DNA from: Patescibacteria group bacterium
GTDB lineage: Bacteria; Patescibacteriota; Patescibacteriia; Veblenbacterales; UBA10138
Length of the DNA stretch: 64,000 bases
NCBI GenBank assembly: GCA_041645215.1
Contig: JBAZQK010000002.1
Coordinates: 15,435 to 79,434, forward strand
Direction of reading: 5' to 3'
Below the pieces are notes generated by a model, which was not told the DNA's origin, made no database searches, and saw nothing but the letters and a program-made list of their open reading frames with translations. Shown here piece by piece: positions 43,561-62,012 of this stretch (positions are counted from its first letter, which is position 1; every line of letters starts with the position of its first letter). The translations under genes were made by a program, and so were the position numbers.

Positions 43561-43634
43561 GGAAGGTTTTTTCCTGCGAGCGTTCATTCTTTTTTGAGGA
43601 AGGTTTTTTCCTGCGAGCGTTCATTCTTTTTTAA
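43561..43634. repeat. Tandem 37-bp repeat x2 (GGAAGGTTTTTTCCTGCGAGCGTTCATTCTTTTTT) forming imperfect hairpins
   Basis: Seen directly; second unit overlaps the 3-prime end of the minus-strand methyltransferase gene. Confidence 0.6.
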
Positions 43635-44349
43635 TGATGGCGATATAAATTGATTTATCAGAATCAATAAAATTTCTGACTCTCCAACCAGTATTTTTCA
43701 AAATATTTTTCATTTGGTTTTTAGAAACAAGTAAGTAATCAAACCAATCTCCAATATATTTCTTGAATCTAATTCTAATGCGAAGTTGCCCAGGCATTCT
43801 TCCTCTTTTTTCGTTGAACTTATGATAAGAGAGGTGTACCGGATCGTCTGTTTTATAAACATCATTGCTTTCAGCGAGTATCAAGGCGTTAGAGCTGGTT
43901 ATTTTGTGAAGTTTCTTGAGTAAGGATTTGGCTTTCTTAAAACTACCAAATAAACCAAAGTTGTTGCCGAACATGATAACAGTATCAAAAGTTTTTGGTT
44001 TGAATGTGCCGATTTTTTCAATAGGTAAAACTTTGGCGTTCTTTACACCACGCTTTTTACAGACTTTTATAGCAAGTGGTGAATTGTCTATGGCAATCAC
44101 ATCAAAATTTCTTTTCTGAAGATAAAGAGAATTGCGTCCAGCCCCAGCACCGATATCAAGGATTTTACCTTTGGCTAACTTGATTGCTTGTTTTTCAATT
44201 TTCGGCCAATCTTTAAAATTCGCAAAATAAGCCGATGCACCTCCCGACAGACCAATGAAACCGTCATCTCTTTCAACGACTTCATAAGAATCTTTTTTGA
44301 GGAAGAATGCCCATACCTCTTGTCCGTAAGCATCTTTGTTTGTATCCAT
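43621..44349 (-). CDS. Class I SAM-dependent methyltransferase
   Basis: Motif I ILDIGAGAGRNSLYL. Confidence 0.7.
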   Translation of the reverse strand: MDTNKDAYGQEVWAFFLKKDSYEVVERDDGFIGLSGGASAYFANFKDWPKIEKQAIKLAKGKILDIGAGAGRNSLYLQKRNFDVIAIDNSPLAIKVCKKRGVKNAKVLPIEKIGTFKPKTFDTVIMFGNNFGLFGSFKKAKSLLKKLHKITSSNALILAESNDVYKTDDPVHLSYHKFNEKRGRMPGQLRIRIRFKKYIGDWFDYLLVSKNQMKNILKNTGWRVRNFIDSDKSIYIAIIKKE

Positions 44350-44372
44350 ATTGGTTTGATTATGACTGGGAT

Positions 44373-44768
44373 TTATTCCTTAAAAAGTTTTATCCAGCCT
44401 AATTTTAACCACAAAACTATTTCATCGTAGGATTGGACACTCTTATCAGGCATTTGCAAAAGTATCACTTCAATATTTTTATTATAAATCAAATTTTGAG
44501 CAATGCCAAAGCCTATTTCAGCAAAGGTTTCAGCGCCGATGTATCCGGTGATGGCGTTTTTATCTTCATTCATAACAAAAAGAATATCCGTTTCGGTTAT
44601 GTTTTTAAAAAATTCCGTATGCACCTTTGGATATTCTTCTAAGAAAGTTTTCTTGGGAACTGGCAATGGGTAGCCGGTAACTAAATAGCCATTATCTTCC
44701 CAAAACTTTTTCCAATGTTGAACTTTTTCTTGCGGTCCGGCGCTGCCGACAATAACAACTTTTTTCAT
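44373..44768 (-). CDS. LOG/SLOG/nucleoside 2-deoxyribosyltransferase-fold protein (short)
   Basis: VVIVGSAG N-terminal and ITGYIGAETFAEIGFGIAQ resembling the LOG PGGxGTxEE / NDT glycine-rich motifs. Confidence 0.4.
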   Translation of the reverse strand: MKKVVIVGSAGPQEKVQHWKKFWEDNGYLVTGYPLPVPKKTFLEEYPKVHTEFFKNITETDILFVMNEDKNAITGYIGAETFAEIGFGIAQNLIYNKNIEVILLQMPDKSVQSYDEIVLWLKLGWIKLFKE

Positions 44769-44826
44769 AATGAGTAATGATTGTAAAATAGTGTGATTTG
44801 AGCTGAAGACGAAAAGGCAAAAAACA

Positions 44827-45273
44827 TTACTTTAAAAAGCTATCATACAGTTCAAAAGCTTTTAAGCATTCGTTTTTTACATTAACGGGAATGTGTTCTT
44901 TGTTTAAATCATTTTTAGTAAACCACCCAAAATTCTTTAACTCATTATTTATTTTTAGTCGTTCTGGATTTATGGCCTTGCAAACATAATACAGCGAACA
45001 ATGGTCATGGTCGCCAACTGAATGGACATTTACATAAAAAGGCGTAGCCAGATTATATTTGACATTTCCTTCTTCGGGTAAATCACTGACGTTGAGAATT
45101 TCTACGTCAATTCCGATTTCTTCTTTAATCTCACGAAGCAAGGCCTGGTCAGGAGTTTCGTTTTCGTCAATATGACCTCCCACAGCCAGCCATAAATCCA
45201 AACTTTTATGGTGAATTAGTAAAACCTTGTTTTCATGAATAATATATCCTGTAACGACTAAATCCGTTTTCAT
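44827..45273 (-). CDS. NUDIX hydrolase
   Basis: Nudix box GGHIDENETPDQALLREIKEEIGI. Confidence 0.7.
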   Translation of the reverse strand: MKTDLVVTGYIIHENKVLLIHHKSLDLWLAVGGHIDENETPDQALLREIKEEIGIDVEILNVSDLPEEGNVKYNLATPFYVNVHSVGDHDHCSLYYVCKAINPERLKINNELKNFGWFTKNDLNKEHIPVNVKNECLKAFELYDSFLK

Positions 45274-45398
45274 ATTGTGGCTTGAGTCTAATATGTTAAA
45301 TTTTGATAAATTGACGTTGAGATAATTATCAGTATCAGAAATAAGATAATGTTTGTAATTGCCGGATTAAGGAATTTTTTCCAGTTCATAGGTTTAAT

Positions 45399-45659
45399 TT
45401 ATTGATAAATATCATGGTCGCCGACTGAATGAAAAAATACTGCGTCTTTGTCCTTGGAAAACTCAAAAATTATTCTATATTTATAGCCAATAGAAAAAGA
45501 TAAAAACCCACTTAACTTACCTTTAAGCTTGTGGGTTTTTAGTTTAGAATCAAAAGGATTTTGTCTAAATATCTTTTCCTGCTGTTCAGCGATATCTTTG
45601 ATATTGTCCGGCAGCCTTTTGTATTCCCGGGCGAATTTTGAACTATAGATTACCTCCAT
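45399..45659 (-). CDS. RelE/ParE-family toxin
   Basis: 86 aa; KTHKLKGKLSGF...YRIIFEF...VGDHDIY pattern typical of RelE/ParE. Confidence 0.6.
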   Translation of the reverse strand: MEVIYSSKFAREYKRLPDNIKDIAEQQEKIFRQNPFDSKLKTHKLKGKLSGFLSFSIGYKYRIIFEFSKDKDAVFFHSVGDHDIYQ

Positions 45660-45671
45660 AAAAGGCAGTGA

Positions 45672-45887
45672 TTATCTCAAAGCTTTTAAAGATTTTAAAA
45701 CCTTACCATTGCCGGAGTTAATTTCTTGACGGCTTTGGTTAAGCTCGCTTAAGAGCTTACCCTCTTGCCACTCTCTTAAAATATGGCGAAAAAATTCGCT
45801 GGTAGAGGAATAATTTCCGGTTTTGACCATGTCTTTTACGGTTTTAGCCATTGGGGATGGCAGTGAAATGTTAATTACTTTACGCAT
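45672..45887 (-). CDS. Antitoxin (RHH/ParD/RelB-like) partner of the RelE/ParE toxin
   Basis: 71-aa ORF directly upstream of the toxin; STSEFFRHILREW motif. Confidence 0.55.
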   Translation of the reverse strand: MRKVINISLPSPMAKTVKDMVKTGNYSSTSEFFRHILREWQEGKLLSELNQSRQEINSGNGKVLKSLKALR

Positions 45888-45995
45888 ATGTTTAAATATT
45901 AATTGTAATAGTTTGTATTACAATATTATCAAATCTTAAAAACATTGTCAAATGCTATAAAATAAGCGGCATTTTCTTTAACTGTATACGCTGTG

Positions 45996-46478
45996 TTAGG
46001 CGATGTTAATTTTACTTTTTATGATTTTTTCCTCTATTAATGATGTTCTGATTTTATTTACACCAGAGGATAAAAAAATTGTTTTAATTCCTGGAAATTT
46101 GCTTTCGACATTCTTTGCAATATCTTTTCTTCGTTTTATTTTGTCTTTTTCATTTGAAAAAACCAAAAAATTCGGTTTTATTTTCTTTAAATTTTCATCG
46201 TCATATAAGGCCCTATTTGTCACAAATACATAATCAACAGCTTTTAATCCTAATAATAATTCAGCACGTTGTTTTTCTGGAATTATAGGACGATGATTTC
46301 CTTTGGTTTTTTTAATAAATCTATCACCGTTAATTCCAATAACTAAAATATCGCCGAATTTTTTGGCTTTTTCAATAAAACGAAGGTGTCCTATGTGTAA
46401 AATGTCGAAACACCCACCCAATAAAACAATTTTTTTTAGTCTGTTCAGATCGTTACCTAGTATATCTAAAGAAGTCAT
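45996..46478 (-). CDS. Cytidylyl/adenylyltransferase (HxGH nucleotidyltransferase; RfaE domain II / TagD-like)
   Basis: LLGGCFDILHIGH motif; ~160 aa. Confidence 0.65.
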   Translation of the reverse strand: MTSLDILGNDLNRLKKIVLLGGCFDILHIGHLRFIEKAKKFGDILVIGINGDRFIKKTKGNHRPIIPEKQRAELLLGLKAVDYVFVTNRALYDDENLKKIKPNFLVFSNEKDKIKRRKDIAKNVESKFPGIKTIFLSSGVNKIRTSLIEEKIIKSKINIA

Positions 46479-46504
46479 AAAAAGTAAAATTAATTTCGTT
46501 TAAC

Positions 46505-46680
46505 GTTCCAGAATATGCGATATTTGCCATTGCTATAATATCGCGAAGCGGTAGCAGTGGCAAATATGGGTGTAGCGAGGTGCAACCGAGCGAAACCGCA
46601 TATTCTGTGTTAAGTGAGGCGTAGGCCGAGCCCGAGGGCAACGTCCCGAAGGGCTGGCGAGAGTTACAATTTTTTTCTTA
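46505..46680 (+). ncRNA. Candidate small structured RNA ending in an intrinsic terminator (nested inverted repeats, then hairpin plus T7)
   Basis: Stems CAGAATATGCG/CGCATATTCTG and ATATTTGCCATTGC/GCAGTGGCAAATAT; GC hairpin at 46624-46660 followed by TTTTTTT on plus strand only. Confidence 0.3.
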
Positions 46681-47131
46681 TAAAAGATTGAACGATATTT
46701 AACTCGAGATACTTTTTTTGTAAATCAGGGGGGAGATGTCGGAAATCCCCAATAGTATGTCGGCAGTTTTGGCCCTTACATTCACATTGAAGGGTCCAAT
46801 TATCTTCATCCATTGTTGTTGAATAATCATAAAAAATTTCTTGACCTGGTGAAATATCTTCAATTGCCACAAGAAACCGATCATCCTTAATACCGGCATT
46901 TGGCGAGCATGAATGGTTGACTAAAACACCAGGCTCTTGAATATCAATATACTCTGTTGACCCAATTTGAAGCGGACAACTTAATTTATCTAATGGTTTT
47001 TGCAGTGCCTGTTCAGGAGAGATAACTGGACCTGTAAATTCAAGCATGCACTCGCCTTTGAGTATTGGCTTTGTTGCAAATACACCTCTGCCAAAATTGC
47101 CGCTATCCATAATTTCAATTTTTCCCGACAT
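46664..47131 (-). CDS. SET-domain protein lysine methyltransferase
   Basis: NHSCSPN, EIFYDY and post-SET CECKGQNCRH motifs. Confidence 0.75.
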   Translation of the reverse strand: MSGKIEIMDSGNFGRGVFATKPILKGECMLEFTGPVISPEQALQKPLDKLSCPLQIGSTEYIDIQEPGVLVNHSCSPNAGIKDDRFLVAIEDISPGQEIFYDYSTTMDEDNWTLQCECKGQNCRHTIGDFRHLPPDLQKKYLELNIVQSFIRKKL

Positions 47132-58304: not shown

Positions 58305-59027
58305 ATGAATCTACCACAATTAATGAAGCATTTTTTTGAACTTTACGGCAAAAGAAACCGTATTTTTCTGGAAAGTCTGCTTAAGCGCATTGTGTTTTTG
58401 AACCTAGCGATTGCTGATTTAGAAGACGCCATTCGTAAACAAGCCGACTTACCCGACTTGGAAACAGCCTTGGCTAGAGTAGTGGCCAGAATTTTTTGTA
58501 TCGCTGATTATTTTGGCGAACTACCCATAAACTTACCGCTGGCGCAGAAATATCCCCAAACTCATTGCAGTTACTGTAAAACTTCCCCTTGCAGTTGTCC
58601 TGAACGAAGGCCTGATTACACACTGGAGAAAATTGAAGCCACCAACGAACAATTATTATGGTCTTTAGGGAAGTGGTGCGAACACTTTAAAAAAGTATAC
58701 GGTTCAAAAAACAAAGCCGAGGGAATAGAAAATTTAATTAGCCGCCTGTTTAAAGAAATAAGCGAACTACTTACTCTAGCCATGAAAACACCCAGCAGGT
58801 TTTCAGCCAATACCACAATTGACGATGTGGAAACGGAATTTTCTAAAGAACTATGCGACGCGTTGGCCTGGACAATAGCCATAGCAAACTATTGGGAAAT
58901 TGATCTTGAAAATTCAGTAATTAAGCGCTATGGCGAAGTGTGCTGGAAATGCCGCAAAAAACCATGTGATTGCACTGAATTCAGTATGGATCAAATTGTC
59001 TGGCCGTCAACAAAAAATTTTTCATAA
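58305..59027 (+). CDS. Tandem all-alpha MazG-like NTP-pyrophosphatase-fold protein with two C-x2-C-x5-6-C-x-C knuckles
   Basis: Two similar halves, each MazG-like helices then Cys cluster (CSYCKTSPCSCP; CWKCRKKPCDCTEF). Confidence 0.35.
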   Translation: MNLPQLMKHFFELYGKRNRIFLESLLKRIVFLNLAIADLEDAIRKQADLPDLETALARVVARIFCIADYFGELPINLPLAQKYPQTHCSYCKTSPCSCPERRPDYTLEKIEATNEQLLWSLGKWCEHFKKVYGSKNKAEGIENLISRLFKEISELLTLAMKTPSRFSANTTIDDVETEFSKELCDALAWTIAIANYWEIDLENSVIKRYGEVCWKCRKKPCDCTEFSMDQIVWPSTKNFS

Positions 59028-59245
59028 AAATAATAAAGCTGAACTTAACGGTTCAGTTTTTTATTATGAAAATCATAACTGTGGCGAAAACCACGGCGGC
59101 CTATACCGGTATATATGAAAAAAACAACAAACCTTGGCCCGATGTTTTTCCATGGCTGTGTGTCTCGATCTAGGGTGGGCATTTCAGGGGGAATTGAAGA
59201 ATTATTAGTGTCCTAAAATGACACACCTTGGTAAAATTAAGTTAT

Positions 59246-59881
59246 CTAATTTTTCCCAAAATATTTTAGATACGCTCCCCAAAACAACCTTAAGTATTCT
59301 TGAAATTTTATTCTAATATCACCAAGATATTCGGTATACGTTCCATCTTTATTTCTATGCTTTATAAGACTTAAAGAAGCAAATGCTCCTGAATCTTGAT
59401 CTATTAAATTAAACCAATGTGCGTCGTGAATAAATCCGTTTCTCATATCATATAATATTTCCCAAAATTCTAATCGAATAGAAACTCCGTTTAAAGGTTG
59501 TACCATTATCGCCTCATTTAAAGTGCTTATATCATTAGATGAAAAATATTTTATAAAATCTTTTATTCTTTCTACTGACTTTGTTTTATCGTTGTTCAGA
59601 TGTTCTATTATAGAAAGAGTTATTTGATACATGAAACCATCAATATTTACAATCGCTTTGTCTCCAGTAATTCTGTAAAGATCATGAACGTAATAAAAAT
59701 AAATCGTATAAAGGAAATCTTCAAATTTATCTTTTGAAATATTCTCTAAAAAAGTGAAGTATTGATCTTCATTAGTAAAATATGCTGCTAAATATCTCCA
59801 ACCTTCTTCTAATATTCTTGGAATTCTACCTATAAATATAGCTCTATCGGTTTTTTCCAATAAAATTTGGGGAACTATCAT
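59246..59881 (-). CDS. Abi_2 (AbiD/AbiF)-like HEPN-motif protein, candidate abortive-infection factor
   Basis: C-terminal MRNGFIHDAHW matching the HEPN Rx4-6H / Abi_2 RNxxAH signature; AT-rich gene. Confidence 0.35.
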   Translation of the reverse strand: MIVPQILLEKTDRAIFIGRIPRILEEGWRYLAAYFTNEDQYFTFLENISKDKFEDFLYTIYFYYVHDLYRITGDKAIVNIDGFMYQITLSIIEHLNNDKTKSVERIKDFIKYFSSNDISTLNEAIMVQPLNGVSIRLEFWEILYDMRNGFIHDAHWFNLIDQDSGAFASLSLIKHRNKDGTYTEYLGDIRIKFQEYLRLFWGAYLKYFGKN

Positions 59882-59955
59882 ATATTAAATCATTAATGCT
59901 GTCACCGCGTCTCCCGCACAAGGCTCGAAAATTTGCTCATGAATTGAGTGATTTT

Positions 59956-60576
59956 TTATGGTTGAACACCTCGGTCAACTAGGATTGCCAAAGATACAAA
60001 CCTTCCAATTAAATCTTCATAGTCCTTAAAAAGGACTGGATAAAAACCAATTTCTTGTGAAAGACGGAGACTTTGTTCACTATCATCGATAAATATCAGT
60101 TCGCTTGGACTAACCCCAAGCTTTTTTATAAACAAATTAAATATTTCGGAACTCGGTTTTTGATAACCAACCTCCGCCGATATAACCACAACATCAAAAT
60201 GCTGGCCAAGTACGTCTTGGCGAATTTTTGACCAATTTTCTGGACTATTGTTACTTAAGAGGCCGGTCTTGTAGCCTAGCGTTCGCAAACGATCAACCAG
60301 TTCCACCATCTTGGGATCAATGTTAGTTTTTTGTTCAGAAGCAATATACTTTAAGACTTCTGCCGACTTTTTTTCTTTTTTCAGTTTTTCAAGTATAATT
60401 CCCCAAAACTTATCATAAGGAACTCCATCAACATTTACTAGACTGTTGTGGTGGAAATACACTTTTTTCAATTCGTCTAAAGGTACTCCAAGAATCTCAG
60501 CGATGCCCGCCATAAATCCAGGTGGTTGGTCGTCTATAACACCTCCGTAATCAAAACCGATCGCACGAATGTTCAT
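59956..60576 (-). CDS. HAD-superfamily hydrolase
   Basis: IGFDYGGVIDD motif I; IFIDDSEQ motif IV. Confidence 0.6.
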   Translation of the reverse strand: MNIRAIGFDYGGVIDDQPPGFMAGIAEILGVPLDELKKVYFHHNSLVNVDGVPYDKFWGIILEKLKKEKKSAEVLKYIASEQKTNIDPKMVELVDRLRTLGYKTGLLSNNSPENWSKIRQDVLGQHFDVVVISAEVGYQKPSSEIFNLFIKKLGVSPSELIFIDDSEQSLRLSQEIGFYPVLFKDYEDLIGRFVSLAILVDRGVQP

Positions 60577-60750: not shown

Positions 60751-61284
60751 TCAATTCTGCGAGAGCTGCGAAAGATTGAGGCCAAAGAAAATAAAAATTA
60801 TATAAATAATAATCAAAAGTAGTAGCCCACCAACTATAATAGCAAAGGTTTGATTATTAGTGAGCCTCTCTAAGTGGTTCATTGGAGGCCTTTTAACAGT
60901 ACTCGTTTCTTTTGCAATATTCATCCTCTTATATCTATTATAGATTTCATCAAATTTTGGTTGTACGACTTTCAAATTTAAATATTGAGTAGCTATGCCA
61001 CCATTTTTATAAAGAACAAAAATCTCATCAATACTATAATTAGGATCGTCTATTTGGGGTAACTTAGCTAGTACGCCGACACCTGTTTTTATTTCTATTG
61101 CTTTCATCCCTTCAATTTTATCCAAAACAGCCTTTTCTCCCTTATCAAAAACAAAAGCTTTATGATCTGAATTGTATTTTGATTCTTTCCAATTAATCTC
61201 TTGTGTATTATTAAATAAAAGCCCCTCCTTTATTTTTTGAAGGATTTCCCAAATTTTATTATCGAATTTTTCTTCAGGAGTCAT
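60751..61284 (-). CDS. Hypothetical protein with C-terminal TM anchor
   Basis: ORF; single C-terminal hydrophobic helix. Confidence 0.35.
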   Translation of the reverse strand: MTPEEKFDNKIWEILQKIKEGLLFNNTQEINWKESKYNSDHKAFVFDKGEKAVLDKIEGMKAIEIKTGVGVLAKLPQIDDPNYSIDEIFVLYKNGGIATQYLNLKVVQPKFDEIYNRYKRMNIAKETSTVKRPPMNHLERLTNNQTFAIIVGGLLLLIIIYIIFIFFGLNLSQLSQN

Positions 61285-61320
61285 TTTATTTATATACCTC
61301 GGTCTCTCGATAACATATAT

Positions 61321-61497
61321 TCAAATCTGGGGGACATGGATTCTCCCTCGCTCCGACTCGGGCACCTGGGCGCTATGCACCATCCCGCCATAGCGGGACT
61401 CTCGCGCCCTTCGAATCCATTGTACTACCAATAGATATAAAAAAACAACAGACCAAGGCCTGATGCTTTTTTATGGCTGGGGGACATGGATCCCCGC
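61321..61497 (-). repeat. Two degenerate copies of the tRNA-Gln 3-prime end (CTGGGGGACATGGAT at 61327-61341 and 61483-61497) plus tRNA-like debris downstream of tRNA-Gln(CUG)
   Basis: 15-nt identity with the tRNA 3-prime end at 61698-61712; CATGATTACCGCGTC also recurs three times (61511, 61609, 61719). Confidence 0.6.
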
Positions 61498-61673
61498 CTA
61501 GCGGACGGGGTAAGTCAACTCATGATTACCGCGTCTCCCACACAAGGCTCGGGGGCTTGGATTCGAACCCCCGCAGTAGTCCCGCGGTGCGGGACACTAC
61601 GGGGCAAGCATGATTACCGCGTCCACCCCGCCACAGGCGGGGCAAGGCGCTCGCGTCCTATTCACCCCGCCAA

Positions 61674-62012
61674 TTATATCTGGCTTCTGTTAAAAACTGG
61701 GGGACATGGATTCGAACCATGATTACCGCGTCCAGAGCGCGGCGTCCTACCATTAGACGATCCCCCAGTTTTTAACAGAAACTTTTTAAAGGCGTTACCA
61801 CTATGCCAACTTTTAATTTGTTTTTCTCTTTGACGGGCATCTGTATAGCTTAAGTATTTTTCCGTATAAATCAAGTGCCATGGTCTAAATAATTTTGTCG
61901 ACGTAACTAAACCTTTATTATGTCTAGTTAAACGTAACTTGGGTTCTAACTTAGTTATTCCTATATAGTACCTACCAAAATTATTTCGTAGTATATATAA
62001 ATGACAAATCAT
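61674..62012 (-). CDS. Stand-alone small GIY-YIG nuclease (YhbQ-like); ORF has no stop before reading through the downstream tRNA-Gln
   Basis: YILRNNFGRYYIGITKLEPKLRLTRHNKG...RPWHLIYTEKY...REKQIKSW; domain ends ~61772, C-terminal 30 codons overlap the tRNA. Confidence 0.55.
   Translation of the reverse strand: MICHLYILRNNFGRYYIGITKLEPKLRLTRHNKGLVTSTKLFRPWHLIYTEKYLSYTDARQREKQIKSWHSGNAFKKFLLKTGGSSNGRTPRSGRGNHGSNPCPPVFNRSQI
61698..61767 (-). tRNA. tRNA-Gln (anticodon CUG), no encoded CCA; 13-bp leader/trailer helix
   Basis: Manual fold of reverse complement; anticodon stem CCGCG/CGCGG loop CTCTGGA; flanks TTCTGTTAAAAAC / GTTTTTAACAGAA complementary. Confidence 0.85.

Follow-up and report, generated by a model that had tools for sequence, protein, structure and literature searches.

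A rare HEPN-like gene beside a tRNA-Gln fragment array in a Patescibacteria genome: a candidate latent defence RNase

Introduction

What kind of protein is encoded by a small, AT-rich gene that lies close to an array of tRNA fragments in the genome of an uncultured Patescibacteria group bacterium, and how did the gene get there? The gene occupies 59246-59881 on the minus strand of a 64,000-nt stretch of contig JBAZQK010000002.1 (assembly GCA_041645215.1), which is the whole stretch of DNA that we analysed and which we refer to as the window. Its product (NCBI MFA4818471.1, from a metagenome-assembled genome) is annotated as a “hypothetical protein”. A preliminary description of this DNA had taken it for an abortive-infection protein of the Abi_2 type, carried as integrated defence cargo. 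The interpretation that we favour, with some reservation, is that the gene belongs to an undescribed and very rare HEPN clade, that it encodes a latent defence RNase, and that it was acquired horizontally at a tRNA-Gln hotspot. What is new here is the very rare clade, while the superfamily and the type of context are already well known.

Results and Discussion

A rare protein family under purifying selection

The open reading frame (ORF) starts with ATG and encodes 211 aa, and its status as a coding sequence (CDS) is supported by its 19-35 homologs, by substitution ratios and by an AlphaFold2 (AF2) model in addition to the ORF itself. One source calls a 204-aa protein instead, but we preferred the longer version because the homologs begin with the same MxIP..LL N-terminus at the same start. 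The family is extremely small. A set of 5.8 billion clusters yielded 19 and then 30 proteins, one of 1.84 billion yielded 15 representatives, and the 185,579 GTDB species genomes contained a single locus. So far, every member of the clade comes from an uncultured bacterium, in most cases one with a small genome (Patescibacteria-type). The dN/dS ratio across the family is about 0.2, unsaturated pairs included, indicating that the protein is functional and under purifying selection; the gene therefore encodes a real, selected protein. With a single locus in the GTDB set and no synteny, it is not a core gene.

A conserved motif in a predicted HEPN fold

RNGFIHDAH had been read as a C-terminal Rx4-6H signature of HEPN proteins, in the form used by AbiD and AbiF. 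The motif is there and is conserved, within YDMRNGFIHDAH at residues 144-155, but it lies about 70% along the protein and is not strictly C-terminal. The codons of R147-N-G-F-I-H152, the predicted HEPN RNase motif, are at 59426-59443 (minus strand). Taken alone, an Rx4-6H motif is not beyond chance, as it is present in 55% of shuffles of this protein, and RNx3H in 1.4%. It is meaningful here because it is the sole Rx4-6H of the protein and because R147, F150 and H152 are invariant in a family that has diverged to about 31% identity. In the same extended alignment of 21 sequences, N148 is at least 90% conserved, and E93, R147 and H152 are the only invariant polar residues. The arrangement R147-N148-x-F150-x-H152 has the polar residue (N, D or H) directly after R that marks HEPN motifs. 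The codon of E93 is at 59603-59605 (minus strand), and the residue falls in the predicted helix-2 (80-95), where a conserved acidic residue is typical of HEPN families (PMC3710099). The residue four positions after E93 is Asn in the window protein and variable in the family, and the K/R of the typical Ex3[KR] was not seen.

A structure prediction, one of the checks proposed in the preliminary description, came out in favour of a HEPN protein. The AF2 model (pLDDT 89.5) contains, in order, H1 (50-66), H2 (80-95), a helical insert (102-129), H3 (139-153), a beta-hairpin (169-189) and H4 (193-207), preceded by two to three additional N-terminal helices (20-47) that are specific to this family. 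Canonical HEPN domains have been described as two alpha-hairpins with an acidic residue in helix-2 and the Rx4-6H motif “at the end of helix-3” (Anantharaman et al. 2013, PMC3710099). The predicted order of elements matches this description at each point, and R147-N-x-F-x-H152 closes H3 in the model. A beta-hairpin after the motif has also been described in Csx1 (PMC3710099), and the predicted hairpin on this side of the motif resembles both Csx1 and the pEK499_p136 alignment. The model thus predicts a four-helix HEPN-type core, in which E93, R147 and H152 may have the active-site geometry of HEPN proteins.

Comparison of the model with a library of 48,164 chains suggested the same superfamily. 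Among the matches were YutE/DUF86 (1ylm; score 5.0 over 104 aa), HepT SO_3166 (5yep; 4.8), the HEPN toxin 7ae2 (4.6), 4nqf and the KNTase C-terminal domain (4.5 each), HI0074 (4.3), two entries of RnlA (4.0-4.1), 8xdj, TTHA0636, the sacsin HEPN domain, Cas13b and Cas13h (4.0 each), and AbiV, PbAbiF and Csm6 (3.9 each, for PbAbiF over 70 aa). The enrichment for one superfamily, HEPN, is very large in a library of this size.

The sequence searches weigh on the other side. When the window protein and about 33 family members were scanned singly against Pfam, PADLOC, NCBIfam and PHROGs, nothing was above threshold, and no HEPN family model gave a significant match at the sequence-profile level. The profile check that had been suggested for HEPN and Abi_2 therefore yielded only sub-threshold matches for HEPN and none for Abi_2. 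Residues 118-203 of one of the approximately 33 members (P0018) matched PF18736, “HEPN pEK499_p136”, with 17.6 bits (cutoff 26.6; E = 0.0032). The PADLOC model CARF_HEPN was matched below threshold at 15 bits in three of 21 members; the match of one of them (P0013) spans residues 38-161, as far as the motif, and lies in the model's HEPN part (E = 0.0024). Sequence searches of the PDB, with phmmer from a single sequence and with a profile, were empty, and Foldseek searches of PDB and BFVD returned only noise. Taking both sides together, we consider it most likely that the protein is a member of the HEPN superfamily, in a clade that escapes the current Pfam, PADLOC and NCBIfam models.

Genomic contexts of the family

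We compared ten independent loci of the family, the window included. Defence genes adjoin the HEPN-like gene in seven of them, and relatives are repeatedly found inside or abutting restriction-modification (R-M) and other defence loci. In L006/L007 the gene follows a Type III mod and res pair by 33 nt, with S24, DUF2726 and GmrSD downstream, and in the distant subfamily represented by L012 and L096 it overlaps an N6/N4 methyltransferase (MTase) by 4 bp and is followed by an ATPase and a ResIII helicase. In L013 it begins 6 nt after an MmeI-like Type IIG enzyme, itself preceded by a PLD-SNF2 helicase; NERD and Mrr follow, and Fic and MazE are upstream. The gene of L098 comes after a C5-MTase, a 498-aa unknown protein, Vsr and HEPN_AbiU2, while that of L005 precedes Shedu SduA_C, and that of L002 precedes a 1018-aa KAP NTPase and comes after two genes, a LexA-S24-MTase fusion and Endonuclease VII. 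The three remaining contexts, those of the window, L001 and L009, have ordinary neighbours. An all-vs-all BLAST of flanking ORFs found Type III-like DNA methyltransferases to be the only recurrent class of neighbour. At least 16 other HEPN clades are known to adjoin R-M genes in this way (PMC3710099).

None of the neighbours in the window is common to any other context of the family, and DNA similarity between loci is confined to the CDS, starting and stopping at its boundaries. The gene thus moves between genomes as a single gene. Members have 26-36% GC at all host GC levels, which is consistent with recent horizontal movement. The neighbourhood comparison that had been proposed for this gene accordingly revealed no conserved core-genome synteny, and variable position, foreign composition and adjacency to defence genes were all found in the family. 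The earlier proposal of defence cargo holds in this respect for a HEPN-like gene, but not for Abi_2. We found no conserved small antitoxin ORF downstream, the ORFs of 42-45 aa in the window, L002 and L009 being unrelated to each other. The 64-kb window contains no homolog of the R-M or defence genes that lie beside the relatives, so the window copy is solo.

Several of these loci have features of their own. The L012 and L096 loci (L012:4215-11846 and L096:8001-14944) share a conserved four-gene operon whose MTase is about 594 aa long and whose ATPase is of ABC/SMC type, with an OLD-like TOPRIM in L096; the helicase is of the ResIII/SNF2 type. The two copies are at different chromosomal sites, that of L096 a few genes downstream of rpoC-rpsL-rpsG-fusA, and the operon could represent a composite defence system, R-M-like and so far undescribed. 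At L098:788-5384, two different HEPN genes stand in tandem behind a Type II-like module, HEPN_AbiU2 (217 aa) first and the family member (208 aa) second. Directly 3' of the L013 member, a 132-aa gene (L013:8652-9050) with no Pfam match bears R-N-K-S-I-H (FRIERNKSIHDIF) and could encode another cryptic HEPN-like protein. In L001 (7137-7838) and L009 (2353-3045), loci that are otherwise unrelated, a Trypsin_2 serine protease (about 230 aa) adjoins the family member or is two genes away from it.

Given these contexts, the first alternative to weigh is that the protein is a non-catalytic helical accessory of R-M systems, such as a regulator, a scaffold or a specificity or adaptor factor, in which the conserved R and H have a binding or structural role. 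The tight operonic linkage with MTases or restriction endonucleases at four loci would fit such a role, as would the missing significant HEPN sequence match, and some HEPN-fold domains are indeed non-catalytic binding modules (PMC3710099). Such domains typically lose Rx4-6H, however, whereas here no polar positions are more strongly conserved than R, the N next to it, H and the upstream E. Shedu, KAP and AbiU2, which are unrelated defence genes, also adjoin the gene, and it stands alone in the window, L001 and L009, so the family does not depend on one type of R-M system; and domain scans detected no helix-turn-helix or other DNA-binding domain. We consider the accessory role unlikely.

Less likely still is that the gene belongs to a mobile element (a phage, a plasmid or an integrative element) and serves that element, for example in anti-defence or addiction. 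Foreign base composition, a site next to a tRNA gene and gene-sized mobility are what such a gene would show, and anti-defence and addiction genes also gather in defence islands. Yet no integrase, capsid or other phage gene lies beside any homolog examined, and the position inside R-M operons favours host defence. The protein has no PHROG family match and no structural match in BFVD, which rules out a recognisable phage protein.

The ordinary neighbours of the window copy and of L001 and L009 (HAD, ClpB, proteases, GrpE/DnaK) would also suit a lineage-specific housekeeping protein of candidate phyla radiation (CPR) bacteria with no role in conflict. This is very improbable for a family of such extreme rarity, with no synteny, a foreign base composition and defence genes as neighbours in seven of ten contexts.

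Comparison with known HEPN systems

The closest known systems are the solo, R-M-linked HEPN clades (Anantharaman et al. 2013), above all the pEK499_p136-like proteins (PF18736), some members of which are in operons with R-M genes (PMC3710099). Like our family, these are small single-domain proteins with [LM]RN-x-[VF]-x-H at the end of a helix, then a beta-hairpin and an aromatic C-terminal helix, and with a Y-x-Y-x-[LI]-T-L helix upstream of the motif; the sub-threshold PF18736 match described above covers exactly this shared C-terminal region. The HEPN-like family differs in being about 45 residues longer, with the extra N-terminal helices, in the position of its conserved acidic residue, and in its distribution, as it is found on uncultured Patescibacteria-type contigs and the pEK499_p136-like proteins mainly in Proteobacteria and Bacteroidota. 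Starting from the founding “HEPN family nuclease” of plasmid pEK499, we collected its family, aligned 22 diverse members and compared the two families with hhalign. The RN-x3-H motifs came into register, at a probability of 0.18% and E = 0.33, but the score was equalled or exceeded by 46.5% of 200 column-shuffled nulls. As this is no better than the shuffled nulls, membership in PF18736 is not established.

A likeness of another kind links the family to PrrC and RloC, the anticodon nucleases associated with Type I and Type III R-M systems, in which a latent HEPN RNase is coupled to R-M and freed when the DNA-level defence is countered (PMC3710099). The proposed logic is the same, and no sequence similarity to these proteins was detected. 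In PrrC and RloC an N-terminal ABC ATPase is fused to HEPN, whereas the HEPN-like protein is solo and, in L012 and L096, an ABC/OLD-type ATPase is encoded by a separate gene two positions downstream.

The Abi_2 assignment of the preliminary description did not survive. It would make the protein a divergent HEPN toxin of the AbiD/AbiD1/AbiF group (PF07751; PbAbiF, 8vz6) with an upstream non-coding RNA (ncRNA) antitoxin, in the manner of a type III toxin-antitoxin system. The two share the HEPN superfamily, a motif in the style of RN-x3-H, the logic of single-gene phage defence and an occasional embedding in R-M loci. The HEPN-like protein is smaller, however, and neither the window protein nor the approximately 33 members had a match to PF07751 or to the PADLOC AbiD/F models at E<=1 (or <=0.1), while the structural match to PbAbiF is weak and short. 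In AbiF-type systems the upstream ncRNA antitoxin is conserved, and the upstream sequence is more so than the gene (PMC13064643). Here the 250-nt upstream and downstream flanks of ten loci share no similarity, although the CDSs align at 65-78%, and in several loci the upstream gap is only 6-33 nt, which leaves no room for an upstream ncRNA. No tandem repeats were found at the gene, and no Rfam families other than tRNA near it. We regard the Abi_2 reading as largely refuted, with only a slight residual chance of being correct.

A HepT/DUF86-type toxin of a HEPN-MNT toxin-antitoxin pair (as in SO_3166, 5yep, and 7ae2), despite the structural matches, is the least credible identity and is rejected, as none of the ten contexts has an adjacent MNT gene or a recurrent small partner ORF, there is no DUF86 Pfam match, the protein is about 70 residues longer with its extra N-terminal helices and beta-hairpin, and the Tyr of RX4HXY, two residues after His, is replaced by Ala154. 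We take this Tyr to be the AMPylation site, represented by Y109 in the H107A-Y109F construct of 7ae2.

Proposed function

All tested HEPN proteins that keep Rx4-6H are metal-independent endoRNases; they require H and R and leave 2',3'-cyclic phosphate ends (PMC3710099). By analogy, the HEPN-like protein would be a metal-independent endoribonuclease, and a homodimer would probably bring the two RNx3H motifs together. It may remain latent until phage infection or until a DNA-level defence fails, and the active RNase would then cut cellular and/or phage RNA (tRNA, rRNA or mRNA), leading to growth arrest and abortive infection. In the R-M-linked copies, the protein may be activated once the R-M system has been neutralised, as a PrrC-like “second line behind R-M”. 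As no R-M partner lies within 64 kb, the window copy would be either self-contained (trigger-activated) or dependent on an unlinked partner. A more far-reaching version of the proposal is that this is a CPR/Patescibacteria-specific HEPN clade that acts as a portable “fail-safe” RNase for unrelated DNA-level defences, the undescribed L012/L096 system among them, and that has spread as a gene-sized cassette, with the window copy inserted in a repeat unit derived from tRNA-Gln. We regard this version as doubtful.

If the protein is an active RNase, the HEPN defence repertoire would gain a clade, and there would be a way into the antiviral defence of Patescibacteria/CPR bacteria, whose immunity is poorly covered in catalogues, since profile-based annotation misses their proteins. 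Coupling to different types of R-M system also makes the family a set of natural test cases for HEPN as a back-up to restriction, a long-standing and rarely tested model. The concepts themselves would be unchanged, as the linkage of HEPN to R-M and solo HEPN Abi genes are already well established.

The AT-rich islet and the tRNA-Gln array

The window copy itself stands out by its composition. As the preliminary description had observed, the gene is strongly AT-rich; its GC content of 0.277 and its GC at third codon positions (GC3) of 0.193 make it the most AT-rich of its neighbourhood, in a window with a GC content of 0.426. The flanking core genes, SDR and dnaX (MFA4818474.1), have GC3 values of 0.48-0.52 (0.515 for dnaX). 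The low-GC3 islet consists of the HEPN-like gene (0.19), a HAD gene (0.32) and an anchored protein (0.26). The HAD-family hydrolase (59956-60576, minus strand; PF00702, E = 5.5e-19) is immediately upstream of the HEPN-like gene and does not travel with the family in other loci, and the next gene (60751-61284, minus strand) encodes a 177-aa hypothetical protein with a C-terminal hydrophobic anchor. These two neighbours are as previously described, and so are the two Cys clusters (CSYCKTSPCSC and CWKCRKKPCDC) of the 240-aa product of the convergent gene at 58305-59027, but the resemblance of this product to MazG is weak (PF03819, E = 0.057) and below the cutoff. A homolog of it was found in none of the other fetched loci, only in L014, which is the window's own contig. 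Between the convergent HEPN-like and MazG-like genes lies a bidirectional terminator-like hairpin (59035-59060; fold of the 3' untranslated region, z = -2.78).

The islet is directly downstream of an intact tRNA-Gln(CTG) gene (61696-61768, minus strand; 62.7 bits) and of the array of degenerate fragments that this gene heads (61320-61642, minus strand). In the array, the 3' end is present in three extra copies and the anticodon-arm/variable region in two. The 3' end of tRNA-Gln(CTG), GAATCCATGTCCCCCAG, is repeated at 61327-61343, 61477-61493 and 61548-61564, and with five matches over the whole window, where 0.04 would be expected, the tRNA-Gln fragment array noticed in the preliminary description is real. 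The intact gene is the probable integration target.

Two pieces of a single array unit (61426-61551) bracket the HEPN-like CDS, the left piece upstream and the right piece downstream. Upstream, a 24-nt copy of the left end of the unit (61528-61551) is found at 59904-59927 (minus strand), 23 of 24 positions being identical (none expected by chance, E = 2.6e-5), and it ends 22 nt upstream of the ATG. The downstream piece is weaker evidence, in T-rich sequence: a copy of about 54 nt of the right end of the unit (61426-61479), about 83% identical and with a 41-nt core of E = 0.4, lies at 59104-59158 (minus strand), starting 87 nt after the stop codon. From this we infer that rounds of integration and decay at tRNA-Gln produced this part of the window, with the HEPN-like gene inside an interrupted copy of the array unit. 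The window copy would then have been acquired horizontally, as a solo gene, into an AT-rich islet grown at a tRNA-Gln integration hotspot. No integrase was seen, and no relative with an empty site was found, the best dnaX matches being 50-60% identical and none of them accompanied by islet genes. On the other side of tRNA-Gln(CTG), a GIY-YIG ORF (61674-62012; PF01541, E = 3.5e-13; GC3 0.25) reads into the tRNA gene; where it enters that gene, the end of its CDS is uncertain.

Some further observations concern the rest of the window. A first AT-rich islet at 43621-47131 (GC 0.34-0.37) holds five small minus-strand genes whose translations, judged by eye, resemble an S-adenosylmethionine-dependent methyltransferase, a nucleoside deoxyribosyltransferase-like protein, a NUDIX hydrolase, a cytidylyltransferase and a SET-domain protein, with no obvious defence genes among them. 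The 23 nt immediately upstream of tRNA-Gln(CTG) (61766-61788) recur identically at 1282-1304, about 36 nt upstream of an opposite-strand tRNA-Gln(TTG) gene, and the two tRNA genes are 86% identical. A GC-rich palindrome, TCCCGC-N3-4-GCGGGA, is present eight times in the window against 0.02 expected, at 1436, 15822, 26533, 53807, 58130, 61383, 61580 and 62039. Four of the copies lie close together at 58-62 kb, around the islet and the array of tRNA fragments, and another comes after the other tRNA-Gln gene; the palindrome looks like a repetitive extragenic palindromic (REP)-like or terminator-like element.
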